Source of the DNA: an uncultured Actinomycetes bacterium
Lineage (GTDB): Bacteria; Actinomycetota; Acidimicrobiia; Spongiisociales; ZC4RG35
NCBI GenBank assembly: GCA_937989945.1
Contig: CALKIG010000047.1
Location: forward strand, 14,637 to 78,636
Direction of reading: 5' to 3'
DNA: 64,000 bases
In this document: positions 5,087 through 47,898 of the stretch, in pieces
Numbering within the stretch: the stretch's first letter is position 1
How the letters are laid out: the number at the start of each line of letters is the position of its first letter
The notes under the pieces: generated by a model
The model's database searches: none
Seen by the model: only the letters and a program-made list of their open reading frames with translations
What the model was told of the DNA's origin: nothing
Made by a program: the position numbers and the translations under genes

Positions 5087-5090
5087 CTGG

Positions 5091-8587: not shown

Positions 8588-8594
8588 CCCTTGG

Positions 8595-9641: not shown

Positions 9642-9774
9642 CCCGGCAATCTATTTCCGCCCGGCTGACTCGCCAAGTTTTGCAACCTAGGGTTCACTGT
9701 CACACATTGGCGGTGCTCTACCGGTATCCTCCGGCTGCCGACCAGGCTTCGTCGCCTACGATCCAGGTGAGCCA
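9642..9774. promoter_or_regulatory. Divergent intergenic region that probably holds promoters for the wecB-ABC-GT operon (minus strand) and the wbpDEBA-like operon (plus strand).
   Basis: 133-nt non-coding gap between the divergently oriented first genes of two multi-gene operons. I could not pick out specific -35/-10 boxes with confidence. Confidence 0.3.
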
Positions 9775-15597: not shown

Positions 15598-15618
15598 GGG
15601 AACATATGATGCCTCGTC

Positions 15619-16308
15619 GTGCCCTCTGATCTGACGACCATCGCCGATCCGGCGTTCATTCTCCTGGCCTGGAGCGCCGGGCTCGTGCTTGTCGTGTCTT
15701 TCGTTTCATTCGCACGGATCGTCGGACCCGGCTTCACATGGCTGGCTGCCGGCTTCTCTCTCCTGATAGCGCTTCCGGCGCTGTTTGCAGTCGGAGCATG
15801 GTGGGCGCGGGCGGGTGGTCTTGCCGTCGTGCTCGCCCTCGTATGGGCACGAAATCATGCGTTCGCAGGGCTACTCATGTTGGTCGGGGGGCTGGCTCTG
15901 GCGGTCGAAGGCTCGCTCCTTGCGGGGTCGCTCCCCACAGCTTCGGCGGCTTTGGCCTTGGGCGGGGTCACAGGCGAGATGGCGTTGGGTCATTGGTATC
16001 TGGTCGATCCCAGGCTTCCCCGGTGGGCGTTGAATGGCCTTGCTGCGACCGCAATCATCGGACTGATTGGAGACAGCCTGGTTCTGTGGCTGGGCGTCGG
16101 CTTCCCGTCGGGTGGAGGCCAGCTGGCGTATTGGGTCCTGGGCGCGACTTCCATCCTGTTGATGGCTGGGGTGTTGGGGTCGCTGCGATATCCGGCCTAT
16201 TCCGGGGTGATGGCTGCCACGGGTTTGTCTTATCTGGCCGTGCTGACCACCCTCGGTGTGATTTTCTTGGGGCGGGCCCTGGCGATTGGCTTGGGCCCAT
16301 TTGCCTGA
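15619..16308 (+). CDS. Polytopic membrane protein of unknown function.
   Basis: About six hydrophobic segments and no recognised motif. It lies between the GT2 gene and pepA. Confidence 0.5.
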   Translation: MPSDLTTIADPAFILLAWSAGLVLVVSFVSFARIVGPGFTWLAAGFSLLIALPALFAVGAWWARAGGLAVVLALVWARNHAFAGLLMLVGGLALAVEGSLLAGSLPTASAALALGGVTGEMALGHWYLVDPRLPRWALNGLAATAIIGLIGDSLVLWLGVGFPSGGGQLAYWVLGATSILLMAGVLGSLRYPAYSGVMAATGLSYLAVLTTLGVIFLGRALAIGLGPFA

Positions 16309-16311
16309 AGC

Positions 16312-17769: not shown

Positions 17770-17795
17770 GCGTTCGGAGCCCTAGCATCTTCGTG

Positions 17796-32890: not shown

Positions 32891-34141
32891 ATGATGTCCA
32901 CTCAAGAAACTCAGCCAAAGCGCGGCCTGCCCCGCTGGTTCAAAGCTCTGACCATCACGCTCTTGGTCCTGGCCAATATCGCCGTTCTCGGGCTTCTCTG
33001 GATCTTCAACGTGGGCCAGGGCGCTCTTGCGGAGGCCGATCGGGACGACGAAGTGACGGATGTGCTCGACCAATCGACTGGCGATCTGACTTTTCTCGTC
33101 ATCGGAAGTGACACTCGCGAAGGTCTCGAGGATCTCAAGAATTTCGGCAGCGCCGGCGGTGAGCGAGGCGACGTGATCATGCTCGTCAAGGCGAACCGCG
33201 ATGGCTCGATGCAAATGCTGAGCATCCCACGCGATCTGTGGGTTGATATCCCCGGTCGAGGCAAAGACAAGATCAACGCGGCCTACGCCTATGGCGGGTC
33301 GACGCTGATGGTGCAGACGATCAAGCAGAATCTGGGCCTGGAGATCAATCATTACGTCGAGGTCGACTTCGTTGGGTTCATGGAGATGATCGACGAGATC
33401 GGCGGCATCGAGATGTACTTCCCGTATGCGGCGCGCGACTCTTCGTCGGGACTCAACGTCGAGGCCGGGGAGCAGGTGCTCGATGGTGAGACCGCGCTCG
33501 CCTACGCCAGGTCGAGGAAGTACCAGGAGTATCAAAACGGATCATGGGTCAGCGTCGATGCTGATGACATCGGGAGGACTCAGCGTCAGCAGGAAGTCGT
33601 CAGGGCCATCATGAGCGCTCTGAAAACCCCTGGGTCGATCACAGAGGCCGGCGACATAGCTAACTCCCTGGCCCGCCATATGACGATCGACGGGTTCCTG
33701 GCTGAGGCATCCGTCGCTCAACTGGCCTGGGACTTCAGGGGGATCATCGGCGGAAACATCGACGGGGCGACTCTTCCCGTTGTCGGAGGCACCGAGGGGG
33801 GCGCGTCCGTCGTGTACCGGAACGACCCCGCCGCGGCCACCATGATTCAGAACTTCAACACCGGTCAGCCGCTAGCCCAGGAAGCGGTCAGAGTCCAGGT
33901 TCTCAACGGGAACGGCATCCCTGGAGCCGCAGCCGACATGGCGCAGGAGTTGGAGTCCCTGGGGTTCGTGGTCGTTTCCCTGGGGGATGCCGACCAGAGT
34001 TATGCCACGACCACGGTGCTCGTCGGGGATCCCGATGCCGGTTCATTGATCGTGTCACAGCTCGGATTCGGTGAAGTCGTAGCCGGATCTGTCGATAACA
34101 GTGTGGACGCAGTAGTGATCGTCGGGGGCGACGCCGCCTAA
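32891..34141 (+). CDS. LytR-CpsA-Psr (LCP) family cell-wall glycopolymer ligase with a C-terminal LytR_C domain.
   Basis: N-terminal TM anchor, LCP core (LVIGSDTREG...DVIMLVKANRDGSMQMLSIPRDLWVDIPG) and a C-terminal LytR_C-like domain. Confidence 0.85.
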   Translation: MMSTQETQPKRGLPRWFKALTITLLVLANIAVLGLLWIFNVGQGALAEADRDDEVTDVLDQSTGDLTFLVIGSDTREGLEDLKNFGSAGGERGDVIMLVKANRDGSMQMLSIPRDLWVDIPGRGKDKINAAYAYGGSTLMVQTIKQNLGLEINHYVEVDFVGFMEMIDEIGGIEMYFPYAARDSSSGLNVEAGEQVLDGETALAYARSRKYQEYQNGSWVSVDADDIGRTQRQQEVVRAIMSALKTPGSITEAGDIANSLARHMTIDGFLAEASVAQLAWDFRGIIGGNIDGATLPVVGGTEGGASVVYRNDPAAATMIQNFNTGQPLAQEAVRVQVLNGNGIPGAAADMAQELESLGFVVVSLGDADQSYATTTVLVGDPDAGSLIVSQLGFGEVVAGSVDNSVDAVVIVGGDAA

Positions 34142-34175: not shown

Positions 34176-35450
34176 ATGAACGTATCGATAATCGGCGCCG
34201 GCTACGTAGGGCTGGTGACAGCCGCCGGTCTGGCGCGGCTCGGGCATCGCATCCGTTTGGGTGAGGCGAACGCGAACCGCGTGGCTCAGCTGAGCAGTGG
34301 CGAAGTGCCGATCTACGAGGAGGGATTGGAGGAGCTGCTCTCCGAAGCGCGCTCCAAGGAGATGATCACCTTCCATTCCTCGAACGTCGAGGCCGTTGAA
34401 GAGTCCGAGCTCGTTTTCCTCTGCCTCCCCACACCTGAGGGCGAGGACGGCCGGGCTGACCTGACCTTCGTGCTGACGGTCGTCGATGAGCTCGCGGGCG
34501 AAGTTGCGGATGACACTCTCTTTGTCGTGAAGTCGACCGTGCCACCTGGCACCGTGGCCACGTTGCGCAAGCGGTTGGCCGACCTCGGTAGCGCTGCTCG
34601 GGTTGCCTCCCATCCAGAGTTCTTACGCGAAGGCAGGGCCGTCCGTGACTTCATGGAGCCCGATCGGATCGTCGTTGGAGCTTGGGATCCCGACGACGCC
34701 GAGAAGGTCGCGTCGCTGTACGAAGCACTGGGTACCAAGGTGATCAAGACCGACCCGACATCGGCTGAGATGATCAAGTACGCAAACAATGCCTACCTGG
34801 CTGCTCGTCTCACCTTCGTCAATACGTTGGCGAACGTCTGCGAGGCAGTTGGCGCGGACATCATGGACGTGATTGACGGTATCGGCAGCGACCACCGCAT
34901 CGGGCCGCACTTCCTTCAACCTGGCCCGGGCTATGGCGGCTCTTGCTTCCCCAAGGACACTTCGGCGTTGATTGGGGTGGCCGAAGACGCCGGATACGAC
35001 TTCCAGCTCCTGCGAGCTGTCATCGCCGCCGATGACGAGCAGAGGCGCAGAGTCGCCGAGAAGGTCCGTCTCGCCGCCGGCGGTGGCCTACGCGGGCGAA
35101 AGGTCGCCATGTGGGGTATCGCGTTCAAGGCCGGCACCGACGATGTGCGGGAGTCGCCGGCGCTACGCATCGCAGCATTGCTGCAGCGCGACGGGGCCGA
35201 GGTCGTGGCATACGACCCGGAGGCGAATTCTCCTGCGGTCGCCAACGCCGACTCTGCACTCGAGGCCGTGGATGGCGCCGACGTGCTCCTCGTCGCCACC
35301 GAGTGGCCCGAGTTTGGGGAGGTCGACCTCGAACAGGTCTCCAGACGGATGAGAGGTCACCGGGTGGTCGACGCACGCAACCTCCTGGACCCCAAGCGTG
35401 TCCGCCAGGTCGGACTCGACTATTGGGGGCTGGGTCGGCCCGGAGTCTGA
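34176..35450 (+). CDS. ugd: UDP-glucose 6-dehydrogenase.
   Basis: N-terminal NAD fold IIGAGYVGLVTAAGLA and a catalytic region GGSCFPKD. Confidence 0.85.
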   Translation: MNVSIIGAGYVGLVTAAGLARLGHRIRLGEANANRVAQLSSGEVPIYEEGLEELLSEARSKEMITFHSSNVEAVEESELVFLCLPTPEGEDGRADLTFVLTVVDELAGEVADDTLFVVKSTVPPGTVATLRKRLADLGSAARVASHPEFLREGRAVRDFMEPDRIVVGAWDPDDAEKVASLYEALGTKVIKTDPTSAEMIKYANNAYLAARLTFVNTLANVCEAVGADIMDVIDGIGSDHRIGPHFLQPGPGYGGSCFPKDTSALIGVAEDAGYDFQLLRAVIAADDEQRRRVAEKVRLAAGGGLRGRKVAMWGIAFKAGTDDVRESPALRIAALLQRDGAEVVAYDPEANSPAVANADSALEAVDGADVLLVATEWPEFGEVDLEQVSRRMRGHRVVDARNLLDPKRVRQVGLDYWGLGRPGV

Positions 35451-35466
35451 CCCAGGAATCGACGCC

Positions 35467-36165
35467 TCAGCGGAAGAGGTCCTCGTCGACAGGCCGGACT
35501 AGCTCGCTTGCCGTACCTTCACCGGGCTCGAAGTCGTAGCCGCGTACGAGCGCGGCAGGTATGCCGCTTGCTTTGCCCATCACGAGATCTGCGGCGCTCG
35601 CCAGCTCATCGACGACAGCTATCTCGGTGACGTCGAGCTGATACCCGCTCCAGTCCCTGGTCCCTTTCAAGTCCTGGATCGGCCTGATGCCGGCCACGCC
35701 GATCGCGACGTCGGTCAGCCCGCGGCGCCAGGGTCGGCCGAATGTGTCGGAGATGATCACGGCCAGATTGCATCCGAATTCATGGTCGAGGCGACCCTTC
35801 AGCCTTCTTGCCGAGCGATCGGGATCCTCGGGGAGGAGGATCATGGTGCCCGACTGCGCGTTGGAACGATCCACGCCGGCATTGGCGCAAATGAAGCCGT
35901 GTCTTGTCTCGGCAATGATCAGGTCACCCCTTCTCCGCACGATCGAGACTGCCTCTGACTCGACGAGCTTCTCCTTGAAGGCCTCAGGATCTCCCTCGAT
36001 CTCGACAACGCGGCCTTCGGCTTTGGAGATGACTTTGTGCGTCACGACCAGCACATCGCCGGTTCTGGGCTGCAATGGTCTCAGGGCGTCGGCCACCATC
36101 GACAGCAGGTCGTCACCAGGCTCGATGGCGCCGAGCCCTGCCACCGGATGCACTTCGAGCGTCAT
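35467..36165 (-). CDS. cofE: Coenzyme F420-0:L-glutamate ligase (CofE domain only; no nitroreductase-like C-terminal domain).
   Basis: CofE motifs (VVTHKVISKAEGRVVE, ICANAGVD). It is coupled to cofD by an ATGA overlap. Confidence 0.75.
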   Translation of the reverse strand: MTLEVHPVAGLGAIEPGDDLLSMVADALRPLQPRTGDVLVVTHKVISKAEGRVVEIEGDPEAFKEKLVESEAVSIVRRRGDLIIAETRHGFICANAGVDRSNAQSGTMILLPEDPDRSARRLKGRLDHEFGCNLAVIISDTFGRPWRRGLTDVAIGVAGIRPIQDLKGTRDWSGYQLDVTEIAVVDELASAADLVMGKASGIPAALVRGYDFEPGEGTASELVRPVDEDLFR

Positions 36166-37067
36166 CCCCGGAGTATTTCCTCGCCGAGTCTTCGTGCCGC
36201 GGCCGCTTCGACGATGCGCGTGTCGTGCGGCTCAACCGCTACCGAGCCCGAGTGAGACGCAGGGTCGCCGGCATCGGCAACATCGATGATCAGTCGATCG
36301 ATCAGCCCCTCGTAGGCCTCGAGCACTCCGCGTGTGCCTGGGGATAGACCGAGCGAGCGCATGACCCTGTCGGCCGGGCCTTTCAGCGCCTTGCCTCCAA
36401 ACAGCGGACTGATGGCGACGACGTTCGGGTGGCGTCTCACCTCCTCCCTCACGCCCTGAACCGAGAGGATGGGCCAGATCGAGAGAGGTGGGTTGGAGGG
36501 TCCAATGATGACTGTATCGGCTTCCCTGATCGCTTCGACCACGCCCGGTGCGGGCGTCGCTGAGCCGGTGAACTCCAACCCTACGACGGTCTCGCGATGT
36601 TGGCGGATCACGAAGTAGTCCTGGAAGCTGAGCACTTCACCGGACTCGATCTGCACCAGCGTCCGCAGCGAATCATCAGTGACCGGGATGACAGCGCAGC
36701 CGATGCCGAGTCGGTCGACGATCTCGCTGGTGAATTTGCTCAGCGAGACTCCCGACCTCAGTGCCGCCGTGCGCAGGATGTTGATAGCCAGGTCCTTGTC
36801 TCCGAGCTGAAAGCGGTTATCCACGCCGAACCTCTCGAGCTCCGTATTGGTCACGAAGGAGTCGTCCGCCCTGCCCCAACCCTGTGTGCCTTCGAGGCCG
36901 GCCATCGTATAGACGACGGTGTCCAGATCCGGCGAGACGTGGAGACCGTGAATAACGTCATCGTCGCCAACATTGACGACAATGGTCAGGTCTATGCCCG
37001 GGATTTGGCTCAAACCCCTGGCCAGGCGGGCTCCTCCCACACCACCAGAAAGCTCGACGACTCTCAA
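36162..37067 (-). CDS. cofD: 2-phospho-L-lactate transferase (F420 biosynthesis, CofD/FbiA).
   Basis: N-terminal LSGGVGGARL motif and CofD family features. Confidence 0.85.
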   Translation of the reverse strand: MRVVELSGGVGGARLARGLSQIPGIDLTIVVNVGDDDVIHGLHVSPDLDTVVYTMAGLEGTQGWGRADDSFVTNTELERFGVDNRFQLGDKDLAINILRTAALRSGVSLSKFTSEIVDRLGIGCAVIPVTDDSLRTLVQIESGEVLSFQDYFVIRQHRETVVGLEFTGSATPAPGVVEAIREADTVIIGPSNPPLSIWPILSVQGVREEVRRHPNVVAISPLFGGKALKGPADRVMRSLGLSPGTRGVLEAYEGLIDRLIIDVADAGDPASHSGSVAVEPHDTRIVEAAAARRLGEEILRG

Positions 37068-37109: not shown

Positions 37110-39869
37110 ATGACGGACCGCATGACCGATGTCAGCCGAGTCTCACCTGATTCCGACTCAGGGCCTACCACCGCCGTGGCACTCCCGGCGGTCCGCGTCG
37201 TCGTGACCGCGGTCGAAGGTGCGGATATCTCTGCAGCGCTCGCTTCCATCAGGCGCCAAGCATATGACGGCAGGGTCGAGGTGGCTGTCGTCGGCGATCA
37301 TGACCTTGCCGCCGACGAGGCGACATTGGTCGAATCGCTCGAATCTGCAGTGTCGGGGACGGATGCCGACTTCGACTACCTCTGGATCCTCCACGCCGAC
37401 GCCCGACCTCGCCCCGACGCTCTCGTATCGCTGGTGCGGGAGGTCGAGAGGGCCGATGCCGGGTTGGGCGCCTCCAAGCTCCTGAAGGCGGGGACAACCG
37501 ATGTGCTCGAGTCGATAGGGAGCGCAACGGACGTGTTCGGTGAGCCATACACGGGTCTGGACGAGTCGGAAATAGATCTCCAGCAATACGACGTCGTTCG
37601 CGAAGTCTCCTACGTGACATCCGTTTCGATGCTTGTCCGCCGAGATCTGGCGCGTGGGCTTGGAGGGCTCGACAAGCTGATGCCACCTGACGCCGCCGGT
37701 CTCGACTTCTCACAGCGAGCCCGCATAGCGGGGGCCCAAGTGATCATCGTCCCCTCGTCGGAGGTGTATCACCAGGGCCGGTGCCGGGCCCAGGAAGGTT
37801 GGAGAGAAAGGGCTGGACGCCTCCGGGCCATGCTCATCGCGTACAGGCCTCTCACGCTCGTCTGGGTCGTCCCGCTCTCTCTGATGGTCGGCTTGCTCGA
37901 CTCGATCCTCAATCTGCTTCTCCTCCGATGGCAGCACCTGGCGAGCTATATCGCCACATGGGCATGGAATCTCCTTCATCTTCCCTCCACCTGGGGAGCC
38001 CGCCGAAGGGCCAATGCGATCCGAAGCGGAGGAGACGAGGAGCTCTTCAGATTTCAGACATCGGGCTCGGTTCGCCTCCGCACCGTTGGAGCTGAGATCA
38101 GCGCACGTGTCCTCTCGATGTTCGACGAGGATCAGGCGATAACGCGGGGAGCGAAGCGAATGTGGTCCAGCCCCGGGATCGTTGGCGCCCTCGTCGCTGT
38201 CGTAGTCGCCCTTCTCGCCTCCAGAAGCGTGATCTTCTCCGGAGTTCCCAATGCCGGCATGAGCTTTCCGTTCGAGCCCCCCACTCTCTCGTTGCAGCGC
38301 TTCGTCGGCGGGTGGAATGAGGCGGGGCTCGGGTCGCCGGCGCCAGTGCATCCCTCTGTCGGTTTCACCGGCCTGATCAGCCTCCTGTGGTTTGGAGCCG
38401 AAGGGGCCGCCCGTACCTTGCTCACAATCGGAGCAGGAGTCATCGCGATTCTCGGGATGGGCAGGCTGATGGGCCGTCTCGGGTTGCGCGGGTCAGGCAG
38501 GTATGTCGCCGGTCTCGTTGCCATCGCCGGTCCGGGCACGGCCGCACTCACTGGCGCTGGGTCCTGGACCGCTCTCATCGGGGCTGCTCTTCTCCCTTGG
38601 GCTCTGCGGGCGGTGTTCGTGCACCCCACTGAAGAGGGTCGGAGTCGCCTTTCGGCTCTCGGATGGGCCCTGATCATCGGGTGGATCACGGCGGCAGTCT
38701 CGCCTCTTCTCGTAATCGTTCCTGTGCTGGCTGCGGTCATCTGGGCGATACAGGGAGGACGGCGATCTCGACTGCTTCTCGCGCTGGCGACCCTCGTTGG
38801 GGGAGTGGCAGCTGCCAACTTCATCTCCGGTGACCCTGGATGGGTGCTCGATGCCGGCCGTCGCCTCGGCCTAGACGTGCCTTTGATCTGGCCTGGGTTG
38901 ATTCTCGTGGCAGCGCTGCCCTTGTTTCTCGACGAGAGCAGACACAGGCGCGCCGCCGCCTTTGGGGGCCTTCTCGCACTAGGTGGCCTGGTCGCCTTCC
39001 TAATGGGCTATGGCGGGCCCGGCTTCGAGGAGGCGACACTCGTCACTGCTTCGGTCGGAACAGCCATCGTCGTCGGCGTGTCACTCGACCGCGTGAAGCT
39101 GGATGTGCTGCCCATAGCGTCGGCGCTCGCTTCGGTCGCGATCCTCATTCTCTCGATCGGCTCGATCTTCAACGGGTCCATGGGGCTACCCCAGGGTGAT
39201 GTGAATGACGAGTTGTCTTTCTCAGAGTCGCTCGCCGAAGACGAATCGCCCCGGCGCATTCTCTTCGTCTCAACAGAACGCGATCTGGTGCCGGGTGCAT
39301 CTCGTTCCGGTCCCGGTGTCTGGTACCGGGTCTTGGACGGGAAAGGCACGACAAACGACGAGGTCTGGCTCCCTCCCGAGCGCCTTGGAGATCGGGCACT
39401 CGCTGACACACTCGAGGACATTGCCACGGGCGGCGTCCTCCGTCCGGGTGAGGCGCTCTCCGAGTTTGCTATCGGCTGGATTGTCGTCGACGGTGAACCG
39501 TCGTCGATCGACGCGGCGTTGGACAGCCAGCTCGATGTCATTCCGTTGCCCTTCGACCAGGTGGCTCGGGTGTATGAGAACCCGACGGCCGCACCCATCG
39601 CTCTTGGCGAGGAGGGAGACATCTGGACACGCGACGGCCTCGATTGGGTCGGTCCCGAGTCGGACGGTCGAGTCGCGCTGTCAATCAACTACACAACTGG
39701 ATGGGAGCCCGACGGCGAACGAGTGCAATGGCACCCGACCGTCTCCGCCGCAAATGGTGTCGCCTCTTATCAACCTCATCCCACCAACGCTCTTCTCGGC
39801 TGGGTGTCGTTGGGCACATTGGCCGCCGGGCTAGTGCTCGTGTTGATCGGACGGGGGAGGCGAACGTGA
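37110..39869 (+). CDS. Fusion protein with an N-terminal GT2-like (GT-A) domain and a C-terminal polytopic membrane domain of about 600 aa.
   Basis: GT-A region with DxD (TDADFDYLWILHAD) followed by many hydrophobic helices. The start is at MTDRMTD; the ORF-track start 36597 overlaps cofD in antisense. Confidence 0.7.
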   Translation: MTDRMTDVSRVSPDSDSGPTTAVALPAVRVVVTAVEGADISAALASIRRQAYDGRVEVAVVGDHDLAADEATLVESLESAVSGTDADFDYLWILHADARPRPDALVSLVREVERADAGLGASKLLKAGTTDVLESIGSATDVFGEPYTGLDESEIDLQQYDVVREVSYVTSVSMLVRRDLARGLGGLDKLMPPDAAGLDFSQRARIAGAQVIIVPSSEVYHQGRCRAQEGWRERAGRLRAMLIAYRPLTLVWVVPLSLMVGLLDSILNLLLLRWQHLASYIATWAWNLLHLPSTWGARRRANAIRSGGDEELFRFQTSGSVRLRTVGAEISARVLSMFDEDQAITRGAKRMWSSPGIVGALVAVVVALLASRSVIFSGVPNAGMSFPFEPPTLSLQRFVGGWNEAGLGSPAPVHPSVGFTGLISLLWFGAEGAARTLLTIGAGVIAILGMGRLMGRLGLRGSGRYVAGLVAIAGPGTAALTGAGSWTALIGAALLPWALRAVFVHPTEEGRSRLSALGWALIIGWITAAVSPLLVIVPVLAAVIWAIQGGRRSRLLLALATLVGGVAAANFISGDPGWVLDAGRRLGLDVPLIWPGLILVAALPLFLDESRHRRAAAFGGLLALGGLVAFLMGYGGPGFEEATLVTASVGTAIVVGVSLDRVKLDVLPIASALASVAILILSIGSIFNGSMGLPQGDVNDELSFSESLAEDESPRRILFVSTERDLVPGASRSGPGVWYRVLDGKGTTNDEVWLPPERLGDRALADTLEDIATGGVLRPGEALSEFAIGWIVVDGEPSSIDAALDSQLDVIPLPFDQVARVYENPTAAPIALGEEGDIWTRDGLDWVGPESDGRVALSINYTTGWEPDGERVQWHPTVSAANGVASYQPHPTNALLGWVSLGTLAAGLVLVLIGRGRRT

Positions 39870-41152
39870 AGTGGATCTCGCCAATCGTCGTTCTGGCCCT
39901 CGGGGCGGCCGCCATCTTGCTGCCTCCTCCAGCTGAGCCTCAACCTGACGCAGTGCCAGGCACGGTCTCACCCCCACTTGCGATTTGCCCCACGGAGGAG
40001 GGGGGAACGAGGAGCTCCGAGCTCGATGTCGTCTCCACCGCGGCTGGCTCTGGTCGCATCTCGATTTTTTCCGGCGGTGGCTCGGTTGGATCGACCACCT
40101 TTGAGACCGGGGCTTCGGGGTCGGTGGCCGTGCCAGTTGGAGGCATCGCGGCCGTAGGCGAGGCAGCCGGCCTCGTCGAGTTCCCCGTGTCCGAGTCGGC
40201 AGCCGCCTCGATCACGAGAGGCAACGGGCTTCTCTCGGCCGAGCTCTGTTCGAGGATCCCCGATCGACAGGTGGTAGTTGGTGGTGGCACGACCACCGAA
40301 GACCGCATCTTTCAGATCAACCTCATGAACCCGTATTCGGCGGGCGCTGTGGTCGACATCACCGCGTTCTCGGAGTCGGGGCGGGAGTCGGCTGACACAC
40401 TCCGCTCGATCGTGGTCCCGGCGAGATCTTCGGTGATGGTTGATGTCGGCTCGCTGCTGCCCGGCCGCGAGAGTCTCAACCTCGTCGTCGATGTCACCGC
40501 GGGCAGCGTCGTGACCAGCGCCAGCCTGGAGGCAAACGGTGATCAGGCCACTTGGCGCGCAGCTGCACCGCAAGAGATCTGGTACGCACCGCTACCTGTA
40601 TATGCGGGATCCCGCGAGCTGGTCATTGCTTCTGCAACCCCGTCGGACGTAGCGTTCCAGGTGGATGTGTTTGGGCCGAACGGTTTAGAAGAGGCCGCCC
40701 TCGAGGGAACAGTTGCGGCCGGGGGCCAAGAGATAGTCGATTTGGGCAGTTTGTCGCCGGCAGCCATCGCAGTTCGAGTCGTGGCGACGGCTCCGGTCGG
40801 GGTGTTCGCCAGGTTGAGTGGTGAGGGGGGCATCGCTCTGGCGACCGCTTTGGATTCGTCTGCTGCCGAGTGGCTCATGCCCGGAGCAGGCTCGAGTCGG
40901 ACTGCCGGGCGGCTCGTATTGGTGAACGTGGGCGTGGAGCCGGCGCAAGTGACGGTCACCGAACTACGCGAAGACTCGAGATCGCGCGTGGTCGAGCTGC
41001 CGCCGAATGCCGTGGTCGAGGTGACCCTGGACGAGGTGCCCTCACACGGAGTGGCAGTGATCGCCGACAGCCAGGTGATCCCGATGTGGGTCGGCCAATC
41101 GGCCAATGCCATCGCCCTCAGCGGTGGGCACCCGATTCAACCCGAGCAGTGA
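39866..41152 (+). CDS. Membrane-anchored or secreted protein, DUF5719-like, of unknown function.
   Basis: GTG start overlaps the stop of the upstream gene (GTGA). It has an N-terminal hydrophobic anchor and a Gly/Ala/Val-rich beta-rich domain. The DUF assignment is from memory. Confidence 0.5.
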   Translation: MKWISPIVVLALGAAAILLPPPAEPQPDAVPGTVSPPLAICPTEEGGTRSSELDVVSTAAGSGRISIFSGGGSVGSTTFETGASGSVAVPVGGIAAVGEAAGLVEFPVSESAAASITRGNGLLSAELCSRIPDRQVVVGGGTTTEDRIFQINLMNPYSAGAVVDITAFSESGRESADTLRSIVVPARSSVMVDVGSLLPGRESLNLVVDVTAGSVVTSASLEANGDQATWRAAAPQEIWYAPLPVYAGSRELVIASATPSDVAFQVDVFGPNGLEEAALEGTVAAGGQEIVDLGSLSPAAIAVRVVATAPVGVFARLSGEGGIALATALDSSAAEWLMPGAGSSRTAGRLVLVNVGVEPAQVTVTELREDSRSRVVELPPNAVVEVTLDEVPSHGVAVIADSQVIPMWVGQSANAIALSGGHPIQPEQ

Positions 41153-41155
41153 GCG

Positions 41156-41518
41156 ATGCCGGAAACCGTCGTCCGGCTCATTCTCGTGATCGCGGTCCTG
41201 GGAGTCGTGGCCGTGGCCGTGACGGTGATGCGGATCAGGGCGCGCTCTTCGTCCCGGCGTGTCTTCCAGCCTGATCTGGAAGCCGGCGTATACCTCTTCA
41301 CCTCAGCCACCTGCCTCGATTGCGAAAGGGCCCGGGAAGTCATGTTGACCCGATTCGGGCCGAGCGGTTTCACTGAACTCGCGTGGGAGCAGAGCCCCGA
41401 AATCTTCGCAAGGCTCTCCATCGACAGGGTGCCATCGACTCTCCTTGTGGAAGAGAGAGGTTCGGCGAGGCTCTGGGAAGGTCAGCCCGACGAAATGATT
41501 TCGGCCGTTGATCCTTGA
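41156..41518 (+). CDS. Small membrane-anchored thioredoxin/glutaredoxin-like protein with a CxxC motif.
   Basis: N-terminal TM helix and a CLDC motif in an about 80-aa thioredoxin-fold-sized domain. It starts 3 nt after the upstream stop. Confidence 0.5.
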   Translation: MPETVVRLILVIAVLGVVAVAVTVMRIRARSSSRRVFQPDLEAGVYLFTSATCLDCERAREVMLTRFGPSGFTELAWEQSPEIFARLSIDRVPSTLLVEERGSARLWEGQPDEMISAVDP

Positions 41519-41772
41519 ATGGGGAACTAGCGACTCCTACCGTCTGCGCCATGCTTGTGAGCTGTACCCGCTGCAATTCTCCTGCCGCGGTGATGATGAC
41601 ATTCAATTACACGGACAGCGCGGTATGGCTCGATGACATGACCACCGCCAGTGAGCCATACGGCTACCCCCTCTGTGCCAATCACGGCGACCGGATGACG
41701 CCGCCCCACGGGTGGACCCTCACCGACCGCCGTACGACGACGAGGCTGTTCGCACCACTCTCAGTGGCCTGA
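41515..41772 (+). CDS. DUF3499-family protein (the conserved actinobacterial Rv3258c-like family).
   Basis: Zinc-ribbon-like C..C..A....TFNYTD.AVWLD.....EPYGYPLCANH.......PPHGW matches the DUF3499 pattern. ATGA overlap with the upstream gene. Confidence 0.6.
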   Translation: MNGELATPTVCAMLVSCTRCNSPAAVMMTFNYTDSAVWLDDMTTASEPYGYPLCANHGDRMTPPHGWTLTDRRTTTRLFAPLSVA

Positions 41773-42050
41773 TGGCTCTGGATCGCGATCTGCTCGATGC
41801 GGTCCGCGATCTGGACGACCATGAGTTGCGTCGTCTTCTCATACTCACCCGGTCTCAGCTGGAGCGCTCGGGCGCGATCGAGCCGGACAACGAGCCCGAG
41901 GTCAGTCTTCGCCAGCAGGAAGTGCGTTGCGGGAAGCGGGGGTGCACCAAGTGCCCTCACGGGCCGTATTGGTACGCCTATTGGACCGAGAACGGCCGAC
42001 GCCGCAGTCGCTACATAGGGCGTCTACTCGACGAGGAAACGTTGTTGTAA
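41772..42050 (+). CDS. Hypothetical small protein of 92 aa with a CGKRGCTKCPHGPYWYAYW motif.
   Basis: Its start overlaps the upstream stop (TGATG). The C-terminus is Cys/aromatic-rich. Confidence 0.4.
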   Translation: MALDRDLLDAVRDLDDHELRRLLILTRSQLERSGAIEPDNEPEVSLRQQEVRCGKRGCTKCPHGPYWYAYWTENGRRRSRYIGRLLDEETLL

Positions 42051-42106
42051 ACAGTGTGCACATTTACAGTGTCACCCACCACACCCCCAAGACATGGACG
42101 GAGCCG

Positions 42107-42283
42107 ATGGACTGCCCCCAGTGCTCAACACCTGATGTGATTGAAATCGACCAGACTTTGCCCGACGGCCAGCAAGTCCGTTTCTTCTCATGCCATCACT
42201 GTGAGGAGAAGTGGTGGACCCAGGGCGACAAGGAGGTCGACCTGAGTCAGATCCTGGAGATGGTCCGCGAACACAAGGCGTGA
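42107..42283 (+). CDS. Small zinc-ribbon protein of 58 aa (CPQC...CHHC).
   Basis: Two CxxC pairs separated by 25 aa. The start could lie upstream, because the ORF is open from 41927. Confidence 0.4.
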   Translation: MDCPQCSTPDVIEIDQTLPDGQQVRFFSCHHCEEKWWTQGDKEVDLSQILEMVREHKA

Positions 42284-42309
42284 GCCTGCTCAGCCGTTTG
42301 AGGCCCAAC

Positions 42310-44640
42310 ATGGGGTGGCCGGCGGTGATCGCCATCGCCGGCGTCTCGCTGATCATCTTCATCATCCTGAACCCGTGGCTGCTGCTCACTTCGACCACGC
42401 CCACCGGTGGAGACATGGGAGCGCACGTGTTTGGCCCGGCCTTCCTCAGGGACACACTCCTGCCCGAGGGACGAATCCTCGGGTGGTCCGATGACTGGTT
42501 TGCCGGCTTTCCCGCCTTCTACTTCTACTTCCCTCTCCCATCGCTGACCATCGTCCTGCTCGATCTCATCCTTCCCTATGGGGTGGCTTTCAAGCTCGTC
42601 ACCGTGCTGGGGTTGATCGGGCTGCCGTTCGCCGCGTACTTCCACGCTCGCTGCATAGGGCTCTCCAGATCGGTCTCGGTGGTTGCCGCCACATCCGGCG
42701 CCATCTTCGCCTTCATGGAGAGCTTCAACATTTTCGGGGGCAACATCGCATCGTCCCTTGCCGGCGAGTTCTCCTACTCATGGTCGTTTGCCTTGTCGCT
42801 TGTGTACCTCGGGCTCCTCATCAGGGGCGTCCGGGACGACCGGCGCTATCTGAAGTGGGCGGCGCTCGCACTTGCCCTGACTGCTCTATCCCATATCCTC
42901 ACCACGCTCGTAATCGTCTTTGCGTCGCTTTTCGTGCTCGGCTGGAAGAAGGGCGTGACCCGTGCACCGCTGGTGTGGGTTTGGGGCTTCGCAATCGCTG
43001 CGTTCTGGGCTCTGCCACTGCTGGCGCGGATCGGGCTGACGTCGGACATGGCGTGGACGCCCTTGAGCCGTCTCGAGGAGATCTTCCCTGTGGAGCTCTG
43101 GCTCTTGCTGCCGCTCGCTATCGCAGGAGCGGTCTGGGCGGTTCGGCGATCTACCAGCGCTGTCCCACTGATCGCCGCGACGCTTCTACCGGTGATCTAC
43201 TACCCGCTCCCGAATGTGCTCCCCGAGCTTCTGCCGGAGATCTTTGACGGGCAACGCTGGAAGCTTTGGAACGGGAGACTCTTGCCTTACTGGTATTTCG
43301 GCGTGGCCTTCTTCGCCGCGGTCGCGGTTGGGGCTGCTGTCGTCTGGGCGAGCCGTCGTCTCCCCTCGCGAGCGTCGATCGCATGGGTCAGAGGCCTGAT
43401 CGTGCTTGTCACGGCTGTTGGTGCAGGTCTTGCCGCCGATGCCGCGGAGTTCCCTGACTGGGTTTGGACCCTGTTCGTCGCGGGCGGGATGCTCTTGCTC
43501 GTCGCATCGCTGTGGTGGGGTGAGTCGGTGGGCACTCGTGACTACCTGGTCAGCTTCGCCGTGGTCGTTCTCGCCCTCGGTGCCCTTTCGGGTGTGACCT
43601 TTGTGGACGGTTGGGCCAAGTGGAACTACGAGGGCTACGAAGCCAAAGGGCCCTGGCCCGAATACGAGGCCCTCATGATCGAAATCGACAGCCTCCCGGA
43701 TGGTCGTGTCCAGTGGGAGGGGAACAGCGAGTGGAATCAATACGGGACGCCCATGTCACCAATGCTGATCCCGTATTGGACCCAAGACTCTCACGAATCG
43801 ATGGAAGGCCTCTATTTCGAGTCGTCGCTCACTACGCCCTTTCACTTCATCAACTCCTCGGAGATGTCCCTCAACGCTTCCAACCCCATCCCCGGTCTCC
43901 GCTACAACAACTTCCAACTGGAGCGCGGCCTGAAACACCTCGACCTCTACGGTGTCTCGTACTACGTCAACATCACCCCGGAAGCAGGCCAGGCCGCCGA
44001 CGAGCTCGAATCCATGACGAAGATCGCCGAATCCGGGCCGTTCGGGATCTTCGCCCTTCCCGAAACGCAACTGGTCGAGGCTGCCGAGTTCGTGCCCTCG
44101 GTGTACGAGGTTCCCGAGAGGGGGCCGCTTGCGGCTTTGATCGGCTCGGAGACTGTCATCGGCGCCGACGGCGAGCCGCTGCCGAGCTTTCACGATATGG
44201 CACTCCAATGGTACGACGATGTGGACAACCTGGATCTGTGGGTGGTTGCCGACGGACCGGAGTCGTGGCCGAGGATCGAGTCCCTCGACGAGCGTGAAGC
44301 CGTGCCCACGGGCGCTCCCGAAGACGCTGTCTCCGACATCTCATTCGACGACCACCGGATCTCCTTTCGCACCGAGGCCGTCGGTGTGCCACACCTGGTG
44401 AAGATGTCCTACTTCCCGAACTGGGAGGCAACTGGCGCCGACGGCCCGTTTCGCGCTACGCCGTCCCTCATGGTTGTGGTCCCCACCGCCGAGGATGTGG
44501 TGATCGAGTTCAACGACACGTGGGCCGAGACGGGAGGGAAGGTCCTGACCGTCCTTGGAGTGCTCGCACTCGTGGCAGTAGTGGTCGCTATCGAGGTCCG
44601 CCGCCGAAGGGGCCAGCGGACGGACGGAGCAAGTTCCTGA
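42310..44640 (+). CDS. Large polytopic membrane protein of 776 aa, a putative GT-C-like glycosyltransferase.
   Basis: About 13 N-terminal TM helices with a conserved loop (GGDMGAHVFGPAFLRD) and a soluble C-terminal domain of about 300 aa. The final C-terminal TM anchor is followed by a basic tail. Confidence 0.6.
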   Translation: MGWPAVIAIAGVSLIIFIILNPWLLLTSTTPTGGDMGAHVFGPAFLRDTLLPEGRILGWSDDWFAGFPAFYFYFPLPSLTIVLLDLILPYGVAFKLVTVLGLIGLPFAAYFHARCIGLSRSVSVVAATSGAIFAFMESFNIFGGNIASSLAGEFSYSWSFALSLVYLGLLIRGVRDDRRYLKWAALALALTALSHILTTLVIVFASLFVLGWKKGVTRAPLVWVWGFAIAAFWALPLLARIGLTSDMAWTPLSRLEEIFPVELWLLLPLAIAGAVWAVRRSTSAVPLIAATLLPVIYYPLPNVLPELLPEIFDGQRWKLWNGRLLPYWYFGVAFFAAVAVGAAVVWASRRLPSRASIAWVRGLIVLVTAVGAGLAADAAEFPDWVWTLFVAGGMLLLVASLWWGESVGTRDYLVSFAVVVLALGALSGVTFVDGWAKWNYEGYEAKGPWPEYEALMIEIDSLPDGRVQWEGNSEWNQYGTPMSPMLIPYWTQDSHESMEGLYFESSLTTPFHFINSSEMSLNASNPIPGLRYNNFQLERGLKHLDLYGVSYYVNITPEAGQAADELESMTKIAESGPFGIFALPETQLVEAAEFVPSVYEVPERGPLAALIGSETVIGADGEPLPSFHDMALQWYDDVDNLDLWVVADGPESWPRIESLDEREAVPTGAPEDAVSDISFDDHRISFRTEAVGVPHLVKMSYFPNWEATGADGPFRATPSLMVVVPTAEDVVIEFNDTWAETGGKVLTVLGVLALVAVVVAIEVRRRRGQRTDGASS

Positions 44641-45307
44641 TTCGGAAGAGCCCTAGGACGGTACGGGGCACACGTTTCACCAGCGAGGAACGGGCGGAAC
44701 GCATCTCCTCTACCACCACGGGCACCTCGACGATCCGGTAGCCGGCGCGCTCAGCCCGAATCACCAGCTCGGTGTCGAACAGGTCCTGTCGGCTGACGAC
44801 CTCATCGTTGAGGTCGTCGATGAGGGCCCGGCTGAATGCCTTCATACCGTGCGTGTCCGACACGCGGGAGCGCAGGATGGTGCGGAGGAGGAGATTGAAG
44901 ACTCTTGTCGCGATGCGACGGATCAAAGGACGGCGGTCCTCTGATCCTGGATCACGCTTGGACCCGATGACCAGATCGACGTCTTCGAGTGCGACCACCC
45001 TCCGCAGGAAGTCTGCTGAGAAATAGTCGATGTCGAAATTGACCACCCACTCGCCTTTCGATGCTTTGAAGCCTTGATACATGGCGTTGCCGTAATCCGC
45101 GCTGTCCAGCGACTGGACTTCTACGGGAGCGTCAGCGGCCGCGTCCCGTGCCGCTTGGGCGGAGTCGTCAGAGGAGCCGTTCTCCACGATGATCACCTCG
45201 TAGGCATCGCCGAGCGATTCCATTTCAGCGACCAATGCAGGGAGCGCCTTTGGGATGAACGAGGCCTCGTTGTACACGGGCACGACGACGGAGAATTTCG
45301 GGGCCAT
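44588..45307 (-). CDS. GT2 polyprenol-phosphate glycosyltransferase (dolichol/polyprenol-phosphate mannose synthase-like).
   Basis: N-terminus FSVVVPVYNEA, motifs VIIVENGSSDDS and VNFDIDY, about 240 aa and soluble, typical of the Ppm1/DPM1 family. Confidence 0.7.
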   Translation of the reverse strand: MAPKFSVVVPVYNEASFIPKALPALVAEMESLGDAYEVIIVENGSSDDSAQAARDAAADAPVEVQSLDSADYGNAMYQGFKASKGEWVVNFDIDYFSADFLRRVVALEDVDLVIGSKRDPGSEDRRPLIRRIATRVFNLLLRTILRSRVSDTHGMKAFSRALIDDLNDEVVSRQDLFDTELVIRAERAGYRIVEVPVVVEEMRSARSSLVKRVPRTVLGLFRIRNLLRPSAGPFGGGPR

Positions 45308-45375: not shown

Positions 45376-46716
45376 ATGAACCCCGATGCGGTCTTCAAAG
45401 CTTATGACATAAGGGGTCGGACTGATACGGGAGACATCGACAGTGAGCTGTACTTCCGGATCGGCGTTGCCCTCGTCGAAGCTCTCGACGCAGACAGATG
45501 TGCCGTCGGTCGCGACTGTCGGGCCTCCTCTGAGGAGCTCGCGCTGTCCTTGATGGATGGTCTCATGGCCGCCGGTGCCAACGTCGTCGACCTCGGTGAG
45601 ATCCCAACCGATGTCCTCTACTACTACTCAGGGGCACGGGAGATAGCGGGCGCAGTAGTGACGGCATCACACAACCCCGCCGAGTACAACGGCCTCAAGA
45701 TCTGCAAGCCCGGTGCGGTGCCCGTCGGTGAGGATTCGGGTCTTGCCGACATCAAGGCCATGGTCACCGGGTTCTCCCCACCGGATGTCGAGATGCGAGG
45801 AAGCGTTATCCAGTTCGACCCGGTCCCGGGGTATCTCGATCACATCTTCAACGTGGTCGACCCTGGGACAATCGGGCAACTCCGAGTTGCCGTCGACGGC
45901 GGCAACGGGATGGCCGGGGTCGTCCTCGAACAGGTCTTCGATCGGATGGCCGCAGAGCTCACCGGCATCTACCTGGAGCCGGACGGGTCATTCCCCAATC
46001 ATCCGGCAGATCCGCTGCAGGAGGAGAACCTCGCCGACCTCATAGCGGAGATGGGGCGTGGCGACTACGACCTGGGAGTTGCCTTCGACGGTGACGCAGA
46101 CCGCGCATTCTTCATCGACGATGCAGGACGGCCGGTTTCCGGGAGCACAGTGACCTCCCTCGTTGCGCGTTACATGCTTGCGCGGAACCATGGCGCATCG
46201 ATCGTCCACAATCTCATCACCAGCCGGGCGGTTCCCGAGATCGTCAGCGAGTCGGGCGGCACGCCCATCCGGACCCGGGTCGGCCACTCTTTCATCAAGA
46301 AGGTCATGGCGGACACTGGCGCGGTGTTCGGCGGCGAGCACTCCGGCCACTACTACTTCGCCGACAACTACCGCGCCGACTCGGGGATCCTGGCCATGTT
46401 GGTGATGCTCAGCGTCATGAGCGAAGCGGGCGAGCCGCTATCCGCGTTGCGTCGGGAAGTCGAGCGGTACCACTCCTCTGGCGAGATCAACTTCGCCGTT
46501 GCCGACCAGGACCTTGCGATGGAAAAGGTCGTATCGTCCTTCCGGGACGCCGGGATCGATCGTCTCGATGGTTTGTCGGTCGACACGGGTGACACTTGGT
46601 TCAACCTGAGGGCTTCGAACACCGAGCCCTTGCTACGGCTCAATGTCGAGGGACACGATTCCGAGGACGTCGCATCGATGGTGGAACGTGTGAGGGAAAT
46701 CGTGACGGAGGCGTGA
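45376..46716 (+). CDS. manB: Phosphomannomutase/phosphoglucomutase.
   Basis: Active-site TASHNPAEYNG plus Mg and sugar-binding loops. Confidence 0.85.
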   Translation: MNPDAVFKAYDIRGRTDTGDIDSELYFRIGVALVEALDADRCAVGRDCRASSEELALSLMDGLMAAGANVVDLGEIPTDVLYYYSGAREIAGAVVTASHNPAEYNGLKICKPGAVPVGEDSGLADIKAMVTGFSPPDVEMRGSVIQFDPVPGYLDHIFNVVDPGTIGQLRVAVDGGNGMAGVVLEQVFDRMAAELTGIYLEPDGSFPNHPADPLQEENLADLIAEMGRGDYDLGVAFDGDADRAFFIDDAGRPVSGSTVTSLVARYMLARNHGASIVHNLITSRAVPEIVSESGGTPIRTRVGHSFIKKVMADTGAVFGGEHSGHYYFADNYRADSGILAMLVMLSVMSEAGEPLSALRREVERYHSSGEINFAVADQDLAMEKVVSSFRDAGIDRLDGLSVDTGDTWFNLRASNTEPLLRLNVEGHDSEDVASMVERVREIVTEA

Positions 46717-46898
46717 TGGGACTCATCGATCCAATACTCTCAGAGATCCTCGTATGCCCGGCAGATCACGGCGAGCTGACCGAGGACGTCGCGGAGTCGC
46801 GCCTCATCTGTGATAGCTGTGGGCGCTCCTACCCGGTCAGGGAAGGGATCCCGGTGATGCTGCTCCCGAACAGCGAGGGGAGCTCCGACGATGACTGA
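46716..46898 (+). CDS. Trm112-like small zinc-finger protein (DUF343 family).
   Basis: LVCPADHGEL...CDSCGRSYPVREGIPVML. Its start overlaps the manB stop (TGATG). Confidence 0.55.
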   Translation: MGLIDPILSEILVCPADHGELTEDVAESRLICDSCGRSYPVREGIPVMLLPNSEGSSDDD

Positions 46899-47898
46899 CA
46901 TGCTGGAGATGATCCGGTCTTTGGGATCCCAGCTCCGTTGGGCCGCCGACGTCGAAATACCGGATGTGGCTCCGAATCTCGATTTCGTGGTGGCGGGTAT
47001 GGGTGGCTCCGGAATCGGCGGCGACTTCGCAGAGGCAATCTTCCACGACACTCCCGTCGGGATCTATGGGCACAAGGGGTACCCACCCTTGCCGGGATGG
47101 GTGGAGCGGGTGCGACCCACTCTCTTGGGCGTCAGCTATTCGGGGAACACCGAAGAAACCCTAGGAGTCGTCGACCACGCACACTCCGGCGGCCTCGACG
47201 TCGTCTCGGTCACGACCGGCGGGGCATTGCGATCGAGGAGCCACGACAACGGATGGCCGACGATCGAGGTGCCGGGCGGCCTCCAGCCGCGGGCGGCTCT
47301 CGGATACCTATTCGGGTCGGTGCTCCGGCTCATCGGAGAGGCTTCCGGCATCAGTGACTTCCGAAGAGACCTTCATGAGGCCGCCAACCTGGCAGATGAA
47401 GTCACCGCTGAGGGATCTGAGGGATGGGCCCGAGCAGAGCGCATCGCCGAGCAACTAGCCGGGAGAGTCGTTGTCGTATACGGCGGCGGTGCCCTCTCGG
47501 GAGCAGCGGCTCAGCGCTGGAAGACTCAGATCAACGAGAATGCGAAGGTGCCGGCGTGGTGGTCGGTCCTCCCCGAGCTCGATCACAACGAGATCGTGGG
47601 TTGGGAGACTCTCTCAGGTGTGACGAGCGAGAATGTAGGCATCGTTGGCCTGGTTGACGAAGGTGACCATGAGCGCGTGTTCGATCGCTATCGCCACACC
47701 AGACGTTTGACCGAGGAGGCAGTGCCCTGGGTTGACATCGTCGATTCGACCGGAAGCTCTGCGGTGGCCAGACTTATCGGGCTCACCGTCCTCGGAGATC
47801 TCGTGTCCTGGATGCTGGCGATGAACGCCGGAGTGGACCCCGTGCCGGTTGGGACCATCGAAGAATTGAAAGAACTACTAGTCGAGGAAGACAGATGA
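46891..47898 (+). CDS. SIS-domain bifunctional phosphoglucose/phosphomannose isomerase-like protein.
   Basis: Two SIS-like halves (GMGGSGIGGD; GGGALSGAA). It lies between manB and ahcY. Confidence 0.65.
   Translation: MTDMLEMIRSLGSQLRWAADVEIPDVAPNLDFVVAGMGGSGIGGDFAEAIFHDTPVGIYGHKGYPPLPGWVERVRPTLLGVSYSGNTEETLGVVDHAHSGGLDVVSVTTGGALRSRSHDNGWPTIEVPGGLQPRAALGYLFGSVLRLIGEASGISDFRRDLHEAANLADEVTAEGSEGWARAERIAEQLAGRVVVVYGGGALSGAAAQRWKTQINENAKVPAWWSVLPELDHNEIVGWETLSGVTSENVGIVGLVDEGDHERVFDRYRHTRRLTEEAVPWVDIVDSTGSSAVARLIGLTVLGDLVSWMLAMNAGVDPVPVGTIEELKELLVEEDR

Follow-up and report, generated by a model that had tools for sequence, protein, structure and literature searches.

The segment from 37.1 to 45.3 kb of a 64,000-nucleotide stretch of DNA from an uncultured Acidimicrobiia bacterium (contig CALKIG010000047.1; the whole stretch is called the window below) carries seven co-directional genes and one convergent gene, and our reading, held with somewhat more confidence than doubt, is that they form two lipid-carrier-dependent envelope glycosylation units rather than one seven-gene machine. 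Unit A (37.1–41.2 kb) comprises a 919-amino-acid (aa) fusion of a glycosyltransferase family 2 (GT2)-like domain to a polytopic membrane module, together with an exported DUF5719 protein; Unit B (42.1–46.7 kb) is centered on a 776-aa membrane protein with a predicted GT-C fold and takes in a soluble GT2 and a phosphomannomutase. Both units lie in a conserved actinobacterial backbone (LCP, cofE-cofD, DUF3499, pmmA, Trm112, PMI, ahcY), and Unit B, added to this backbone, has so far turned up in Acidimicrobiia alone. The two membrane sugar-transferases probably decorate the cell envelope by the known lipid-carrier route; the mechanism class is a known one, and the protein families and architectures are new. 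A preliminary description of the region, made from the sequence alone, had proposed GT-C enzymes fed by lipid-linked sugar; that core holds, but it splits into two units.

All eight genes are real, and as many as 80 Acidimicrobiia species keep them in this order. Open reading frames (ORFs) and tblastn matches agree with the coordinates of the preliminary description: the forward strand carries the GT2-like/polytopic fusion (GT2fus, 37110–39869, 919 aa; alternative start at 37122), the DUF5719 protein (39866–41152, 428 aa), a small protein with a transmembrane (TM) helix and a CxxC motif (TM-CxxC, 41156–41518, 120 aa), a DUF3499 protein (41515–41772, 85 aa, TTG start), the small Cys-rich proteins p92 (41772–42050, 92 aa) and zn58 (42107–42283, 58 aa), and the GT-C-fold membrane protein (mem786, 42310–44640, 776 aa, or 786 aa from a GTG at 42280); the soluble GT2 (44588–45307, 239 aa) is encoded on the reverse strand. 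A GTGA overlap (39866–39869) joins the fusion gene to the DUF5719 gene, which is followed by a 3-bp gap (41152/41156); TM-CxxC and DUF3499 share TTGA (41515–41518), DUF3499 and p92 share TGATG (41770–41774), 56 bp separate p92 from zn58, and zn58 meets the 776-aa gene in GTGA (42280–42283) only if the latter starts at the GTG. The 3′ ends of the 776-aa gene and the convergent GT2 gene share 53 bp. The GTGA and TGATG overlaps reported earlier therefore stand, whereas the ATGA overlaps belong to the downstream Trm112, PGI and ahcY genes, and the TTGA junction and the two gaps come in addition. In one 2.6-Mb chromosome (L007, ~14930–15700) about 700 bp are inserted between p92 and zn58, so that this junction is not obligatorily tight. 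A promoter/terminator scan was uninformative.

The window has a GC content of 62%, and its nearest relatives are Acidimicrobiia metagenome-assembled genomes (MAGs). A fusion-alignment scan of one genome per GTDB species gave 80 loci, all in Acidimicrobiia MAGs, whose fusion proteins are 51–72% identical to the 919-aa protein of the window. Counted over the loci whose contig extends to the gene in question, tblastn located the GT2 fusion in 80, DUF5719 in 76, TM-CxxC and DUF3499 in 69 each, p92 in 67, zn58 in 66, the 776-aa membrane protein in 65 and the small GT2 in 59. Throughout these 80 loci, as far as the contigs extend, the order is invariant: LCP, UDP-glucose dehydrogenase, cofE and cofD (both on the minus strand), fusion, DUF5719, TM-CxxC, DUF3499, p92, zn58, GT-C, GT2 (minus), manB, Trm112, PGI/PMI and ahcY.

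The strongest evidence for joint working of the GT-C, the ArnC/DPMS-like GT2 and phosphomannomutase (PMM) comes from natural gene fusions. In protein P0338 a GT-C is fused to a GT2 domain (PF00535) that is 33% identical to the 239-aa GT2 of the window, and PMM, Trm112 and ManA follow. GT-C::PMM fusions of 1150–1440 aa account for ~90 of the best 120 relatives of P0317, whose PMM part is 49% identical to the product of the window's manB; they are 43–100% identical to one another and occur on contigs of up to 5.9 Mb. Both fusion types occupy the same locus in sister lineages, and in both the partner is joined to the C-terminus, beyond the last TM helix; with its additional helix there, the GT-C would place these partner enzymes in the cytoplasm. 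Because these Rosetta-stone fusions stand at the orthologous position, they suggest that the three enzymes work together, as the preliminary description had supposed in tying the 776-aa protein to its neighbors, and a transferase unit around this protein that depends on polyprenyl-phosphate-hexose (probably mannose) appears well supported. Assembly artefacts were considered as a source of the fusions and rejected, since dozens of clusters, several data sources and long contigs contain them.

Gene order in the sister lineages is informative in itself. Loci L081–L083 have a fusion-like GT2, DUF5719, FtsH (minus), DUF3499/Rce1-like, GT-C::PMM, Trm112, PGI/PMI, SecA, PrfB and FtsEX. In L084 the run begins with a fusion-like GT2, a 511-aa gene, TM+CxxC (minus), FtsH (minus), DUF3499 and an Rce1-like gene, and continues with GT-C::GT2, a 215-aa gene, PPK2, PMM, Trm112, ManA and AhcY. 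In L081–L085 (Acidimicrobiales plus the L084 lineage), FtsH (minus) and an Rce1-like CPBP protease lie between DUF5719 and the GT-C, with DUF3499 immediately preceding the Rce1-like gene. In the cultured strain Acidiferrimicrobium sp. IK, GT-C and PMM are separate genes, 5 bp apart.

The soluble GT2 itself matches PF00535 (4.6e-18), and its nearest PDB sequences are ArnC (2e-16) and DPMS (5e-7), so it appears closest to polyprenyl-phosphate sugar synthases of the ArnC/DPMS/PpgS type; at family level this is in line with the earlier assignment to the polyprenol-phosphate-mannose synthase type. Directly downstream on the forward strand are manB/pmmA (45376–46716), a phosphomannomutase/phosphoglucomutase with PGM_PMM domains I–IV all present, a small Trm112-like protein (46716–46898; Pfam Trm112p at 8e-14) and a bifunctional PGI/PMI (46891–47898; bact-PGI_C at 5e-42, NCBIfam bifunctional PGI/PMI at 1e-71), after which comes ahcY. 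Trm112 and PGI/PMI are syntenic across the Acidimicrobiia loci, the L081–L085 lineages and Nonomuraea. Acidimicrobiales also have a minus-strand gene for a DUF2079 polytopic membrane protein shortly after PGI/PMI (L081 16695–18281, L082 15656–17149, L085 16441–17907).

The 776-aa protein has ~13 TM helices and an extracytoplasmic C-terminal domain of ~290 aa, as was described before, plus one further C-terminal TM helix that had been missed. Structure prediction gives a GT-C glycosyltransferase fold for both large membrane proteins, the 776-aa protein and the module of the 919-aa fusion, in line with the earlier guess that the former is a GT-C enzyme. Structural-match scores of the 776-aa model were highest for AglB (20.2), followed by ArnT (17.8), STT3B (17.4), ALG12 (16.6), AftA (16.3), PglB (15.3), Pmt4 (14.9), AftD (14.3), PimE (11.5) and AftB (11.4). 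An acidic residue is present in the first outer loop, as in GT-C enzymes: Asp35 is invariant within TP(T/A)GGDxGAH, directly after TM1, and would sit where GT-C enzymes typically have their catalytic acid. This motif is kept down to ~30% identity, as are three others: GGNxASxxAGE(F/Y)S, the WxxWN motif after TM13 that is taken up below, and GTPxxxMLxPYWT...EGLYxES..TTPxHF in the outer domain.

The 776-aa protein had no match in Pfam or NCBIfam, and profile searches against PDB sequences with it and with the 919-aa fusion gave nothing at E ≤ 1; neither protein matched the Pfam models GT87 (PimE/Mpt), GT39 (Pmt) or Emb/Aft, so that their likeness to these enzymes, judged from the predicted models, is at the level of fold only. 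At the sequence level the two proteins are unrelated to each other by hhalign. When 1.84 billion representative proteins were searched by profile, the 776-aa family comprised 3525 clusters (50% identity) at E ≤ 1e-3. Distant members exceed the cutoff (26.4 bits) of PF10131, PTPS_related (P0248, 38.5 bits; P0268, 35.9 bits), a family listed among those of the GT-C/PMT clan whose function is unknown (PMC7801869). Many of the GT-C fusion proteins also carry PF10131, and the folds correspond; unlike these, the protein of the window and all 31 close orthologues gave no PF10131 match at E ≤ 0.1, and by sequence the tie is transitive only. We know of no characterized member of PF10131, so the name conveys no function. 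Searching a plasmid collection with the 776-aa protein gave zero matches, though an 11.85-Mb Nonomuraea record is included.

Unit A is built around the 919-aa fusion, in which a cytoplasmic GT2-like GT-A domain (residues ~25–235), two TM helices (~242–300) and an Arg-rich linker precede a GT-C-fold module of ~11 TM helices (~350–690), an extracytoplasmic beta-domain (~715–890) and a final TM helix. All 30 fusion orthologues match PF13641 (best 7e-8) and 29 match PF13632, which agrees with the earlier claim of a GT2 domain fused to a polytopic one; the window's own protein is below threshold for the GT2 model (21.4 bits against a cutoff of 27). The GT2 domain also gives GT21-type matches and weak HpnB/MftF ones, the GT-C-fold module falls in no Pfam family, and profile searches of PDB sequences with the N-terminal domain returned nothing usable. 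The partner protein exceeds the Pfam gathering score for DUF5719 (PF18986 at 3e-20; 73 bits against 26.2), as identified before, and begins with a membrane anchor or signal sequence, after which comes a beta-rich exported domain. Its Cys41 and Cys128 are conserved, the latter invariant even in distant homologues. The DUF5719 protein is unrelated to the C-terminal domains of both membrane proteins, and its profile search against PDB sequences likewise gave nothing usable.

The fusion/DUF5719 pair is conserved across both classes examined, Acidimicrobiia and Actinomycetes, and the overlap of the two genes is kept in every lineage examined, including L081–L085, Nonomuraea and Arthrobacter. The cross-class evidence consists of two actinobacterial records in a plasmid collection, found by chance: NZ_LT559118.1 (11.85-Mb Nonomuraea “plasmid I”) and NZ_AP024648.1 (1.35-Mb Arthrobacter “plasmid”), which carry cofD/E, manB, ahcY and LCP genes and behave as a mislabelled chromosome and a chromid. 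Nonomuraea gerenzanensis has cofE, cofD, a 1070-aa GT2 (PF13641 at 2.3e-24; aligned with fusion residues 73–522, hhalign 98.6%), an overlapping 436-aa DUF5719-like gene (hhalign 96.6%), DUF3499, manB, Trm112, SIS/PGI and ahcY, which agrees with the earlier statement that the synteny is conserved in Actinobacteria. Arthrobacter sp. StoSoilB13 shows a subset, namely LCP, a 1124-aa GT2, an overlapping DUF5719-like ORF (hhalign 86.7%), DUF3499 and ahcY; cofE/cofD, manB, Trm112 and PMI had no matches at this locus. The 776-aa GT-C, small GT2, p92, zn58 and TM-CxxC had no match in 30 kb around the Nonomuraea locus and were not found at the Arthrobacter locus.

From the predicted folds, family relationships, synteny and fusions we infer the following scheme. 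In Unit B, the soluble ArnC/DPMS-like GT2 would bind the 776-aa GT-C from the cytoplasmic side and load a hexose onto polyprenyl phosphate; the neighboring PMI and PMM genes make mannose the likeliest sugar. A flippase would turn the lipid-linked sugar outward, and the GT-C, with Asp35 of the loop-1 motif TPTGGDxGAH as its putative catalytic residue, would transfer it to an extracytoplasmic acceptor held by the C-terminal domain. Candidates for this acceptor are wall-linked glycopolymers, lipoglycans and proteins. In Unit A, the GT2-like domain, tethered by two TM helices to the GT-C-fold module and working with the translationally coupled, exported DUF5719 protein, would make or elaborate a wall glycopolymer that the neighboring LCP protein would attach to peptidoglycan.

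Several observations weigh against this two-unit reading. The collinear block also holds the housekeeping genes cofD/E, ahcY and SecA, and adjacency alone is for that reason weak evidence of shared function. For Unit B, the 776-aa model is only moderate (predicted local distance difference test score, pLDDT, 69), with a badly modelled catalytic loop; the best NCBIfam models for the small GT2, ArnC and PpgS, are all far under their equivalog cutoffs, the protein has no TM segment, and in Acidimicrobiales it is not adjacent to the GT-C. A hydropathy scan of ORFs of 80–260 aa found no multi-TM ORF in 37–47 kb that could be a flippase of the GtrA/GtcA/Wzx type, no GDP-mannose pyrophosphorylase was present among the window ORFs scanned against Pfam, and PMM/PGM enzymes also serve glucose. 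For Unit A, the GT-A part of the fusion model is poor (pLDDT <50) and the acidic motifs expected of such a domain are altered. The preliminary description had noted a DxD motif; the literal DAD/DFD (residues 85–89) is not conserved, and the structural DxD position (residues 95–97; 37380–37400) is occupied by an invariant H-(A/S)-D, or HDD in distant homologues. Likewise the (G)EDLD/DDLD of distant homologues has become AAGLD in the window's clade (residues 195–199; 37690–37720). Comparison of the GT-C-like module with the L081, L082, L084 and L085 homologues (26–29% identity) also revealed no conserved acidic column in loop 1; Glu389 is invariant within the window's clade only. The GT-A domain is still strongly conserved in that clade despite its changed acid motifs. 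For the 919-aa fusion, the predicted fold is clear and the catalysis is not.

The lack of a conserved loop-1 acid is also the ground for an alternative that is unlikely on balance and still deserves a hearing, in which the fusion's GT-C-fold module is non-catalytic, serving as a scaffold or in acceptor binding or translocation (compare PIG-U/GAB1, GT-C-fold subunits that are not catalysts), while the GT2-like domain is the sole catalyst, acting on a lipid or lipid-linked acceptor, and DUF5719 handles the product outside. The GT2 matches noted above (PF13641, PF13632 and GT21-type, with weak HpnB/MftF) are to families that include lipid-acceptor, synthase-type GT2s, and a GT-A domain followed by two TM helices resembles membrane GT2 architectures; however, an alignment at 26–29% identity may misplace the catalytic residue of the module, and with the ED acid pair lost from the GT-A domain of the window's clade, no obvious catalyst would be left. 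A bolder extension of the two-unit reading, which is speculative and probably claims too much, would have non-mycolate Actinomycetota make a major wall glycopolymer with a previously unrecognized core synthase consisting of the fusion and DUF5719, a pair that stands next to an LCP ligase and is conserved from Acidimicrobiia to Streptosporangiales and Micrococcales. One polypeptide would couple cytoplasmic transfer to an extracytoplasmic step, and since its GT-C-like module has no canonical loop-1 acid, DUF5719 might supply a catalytic or acceptor-binding function; Acidimicrobiia would add a second GT-C, of the PTPS_related type, hard-wired to its own donor supply by fusion to a lipid-sugar synthase or phosphomannomutase.

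For Unit B, the competing possibility is that the 776-aa GT-C is oligosaccharyltransferase- or ligase-like and transfers, as one block, a glycan already assembled on polyprenyl diphosphate, the acceptor being a protein or the wall. STT3, AglB and PglB share with it the 13 TM helices, the large outer C-terminal domain and an aromatic motif after the last core TM helix, AglB is its best structural match, and the invariant WxxWN(Y/F)xGY(E/Q) directly after TM13 (residues ~433–444; 43600–43660) stands where oligosaccharyltransferases have WWDYG; a phosphoglycosyl transferase and an ABC-2 exporter are also encoded upstream in the window. We nevertheless consider this quite improbable, as the protein lacks a match to the STT3 Pfam model (PF02516) and a true WWDYG motif, ArnT, ALG12 and Pmt come close to AglB in score, and the fusion partners, an ArnC/DPMS-type GT2 and PMM, are enzymes of the monosaccharide lipid-phosphate donor route, which points to a lipid-monophosphate-linked monosaccharide as donor, unlike that of oligosaccharyltransferases.

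The remaining genes encode small Cys-rich proteins. The DUF3499 protein (PF12005 at 3e-13; 50.9 bits against a cutoff of 25) is above the Pfam gathering score, as had been recognized; it is cytoplasmic and is kept in 69 loci and in L081–L087. It is part of the class-spanning backbone; its counterpart in Corynebacterium glutamicum, cg0853, has been described as the first gene of the Man6P operon (PMC7775120). p92, also cytoplasmic, carries a C-x4-C-x2-C-x-H knuckle with conserved cysteines and the motif YWYAYW (CGKxGCTxCPHGPYWYAYW), and is 70–92% identical across its 67 loci, unusually high for a small protein; it weakly resembles DUF6788 (E = 2.6e-4, under cutoff) and had no tblastn match in L081–L087, being seen among the loci examined only in the window's own clade. 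zn58, a CxxC...CxxC zinc ribbon encoded directly upstream of the GT-C gene (49–90% identity over 66 loci), has weak zinc-ribbon Pfam matches and conserved cysteines. A 61-aa homologue of it (27% identity, E 2.5e-7) immediately precedes the GT-C::PMM gene in L082/L083, and L085 has a 55-aa gene in the same position.

The TM-CxxC protein has a single TM helix, and its cysteines, C53 and C56, are at least 90% conserved in 69 loci; a VP motif is conserved too. The membrane-anchored CxxC described earlier is thus present, and the label “thioredoxin-like” goes no further than the CxxC and VP motifs, the best Pfam match being Glutaredoxin at E = 0.17. Five arginines (Arg26/28/30/34/35) come C-terminal to the TM helix, so by the positive-inside rule the soluble CxxC domain is probably cytoplasmic. 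An extracytoplasmic placement was rejected on this charge distribution, itself an indirect argument; the associated thiol-redox component proposed earlier is not supported, and an extracytoplasmic role of that kind is possible but likewise unsupported. In L084 a similar TM+CxxC protein, with weak precomputed Thioredoxin matches, adjoins the DUF5719-position gene, and a TM+CxxC counterpart is absent in L081–L083, with none beside the DUF5719 gene in L081/L082. The small proteins DUF3499, p92, zn58 and TM-CxxC are conserved neighbors, and a role for them in glycosylation is not supported.

It is accordingly very doubtful that the seven co-directional genes and the convergent GT2 make up one integrated machine, a single pathway or complex, as the preliminary description had it: the tight start/stop overlaps, the order kept in up to 80 species, the two conserved cysteines of DUF5719 beside a CxxC protein, the recurrence of that neighborhood in L084 and the persistence of zn58 beside the GT-C in another order would all fit such a machine, but FtsH and the Rce1-like protease divide the two halves in Acidimicrobiales, whose loci lack p92, TM-CxxC and the small GT2, the small proteins come and go between lineages, Nonomuraea and Arthrobacter keep only the fusion, DUF5719 and DUF3499 of the cluster, and the CxxC domain is predicted to face the cytoplasm, opposite the exported DUF5719.

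Mycobacteria and corynebacteria have a polyprenyl-phosphate-mannose pathway in which the soluble Ppm1 catalytic domain works with a membrane partner and the GT-C mannosyltransferases PimE, MptA/B/C and Pmt depend on polyprenyl-phosphate-mannose; PpgS/Rv3779 also belongs here. By analogy, Unit B would likewise consist of a soluble DPMS-like GT2 that needs a membrane partner and a GT-C that uses lipid-linked sugar outside the cell; the two also share the conserved DUF3499-pmmA-manA neighborhood, and PimE, AftA/B/D and Pmt are among the structural matches of the 776-aa model. Unlike in that pathway, there is no match to the GT87, PMT or Emb/Aft Pfam models, and the membrane partner in the window appears to be the GT-C itself. 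In the three-component systems of transmembrane glycosylation, a GtrB/CsbB/GacI-type GT2 is combined with a GtrA/GtcA flippase and a GT-C (YfhO, GacL, GtrC; PMC8035078, PMC5836110). The window cluster resembles these in having a GT-A-fold GT2, probably of the polyprenyl-phosphate-sugar-synthase type, beside a polytopic GT-C in a wall-polymer context. It differs in that it contains no flippase gene, its GT2 is a soluble protein with no membrane anchor (in relatives, one polypeptide with the GT-C), its GT-C is PTPS_related-like rather than of the YfhO/GtrC family, and it includes genes for sugar-phosphate supply, which in some cases are joined to the GT-C gene.

Upstream of Unit A are genes for an LCP (LytR-CpsA-Psr) wall-polymer ligase identified by Pfam (32891–34141, plus strand), a UDP-glucose dehydrogenase (34176–35450) that follows it and cofE/cofD (35467–37067, minus), all syntenic in the 80 loci. 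A wall-polysaccharide locus lies farther upstream (3905–20296), separate from the 37–45 kb genes, and may supply acceptors for the GT-C enzymes; it encodes an ABC-2 exporter pair (6883–8587, minus), a GT2 (14659–15597, minus), a Bac_transf phosphoglycosyl transferase (17634–19079), two GT4s, a UDP-GlcNAc 2-epimerase, a DegT aminotransferase, a GFO/MocA oxidoreductase and a UDP-sugar dehydrogenase. A class A penicillin-binding protein (PBP) is also encoded upstream, and together the LCP, the PBP and the wall-polysaccharide locus are consistent with wall-polymer acceptors. Beside the GT2 of that locus, at 15619–16308 (plus), is a 229-aa ORF with ~7 TM/hydrophobic segments and no Pfam match; as the window's only small multi-TM ORF, it is the only flippase-like candidate. 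At the start of the window (14–3427, plus) are two large proteins with LysM/OapA-like and FG-GAP domains, and SpoIID in the second, which look like secreted, peptidoglycan-associated proteins.

A literature search found no functional study of DUF5719, PF10131/DUF6541, SCO3033-3036, GT2/GT-C fusions or Acidimicrobiia wall glycosyltransferases, and turned up no characterized orthologue, which bears out the earlier statement that the large membrane proteins and DUF5719 have no assigned function. Little is known about envelope chemistry in Acidimicrobiia and in many non-mycolate Actinomycetota, and the locus names two GT-C-fold candidates for it, both without a Pfam family or a characterized relative and one belonging to a class-spanning pair beside an LCP ligase. 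The natural fusions predict which enzymes partner and suggest that a GT-C may act as the membrane dock of a soluble lipid-sugar synthase. Acidiferrimicrobium sp. IK, Nonomuraea and Arthrobacter offer cultured hosts for genetics and glycan analysis, from which a first functional handle on PF10131 and DUF5719 would follow.

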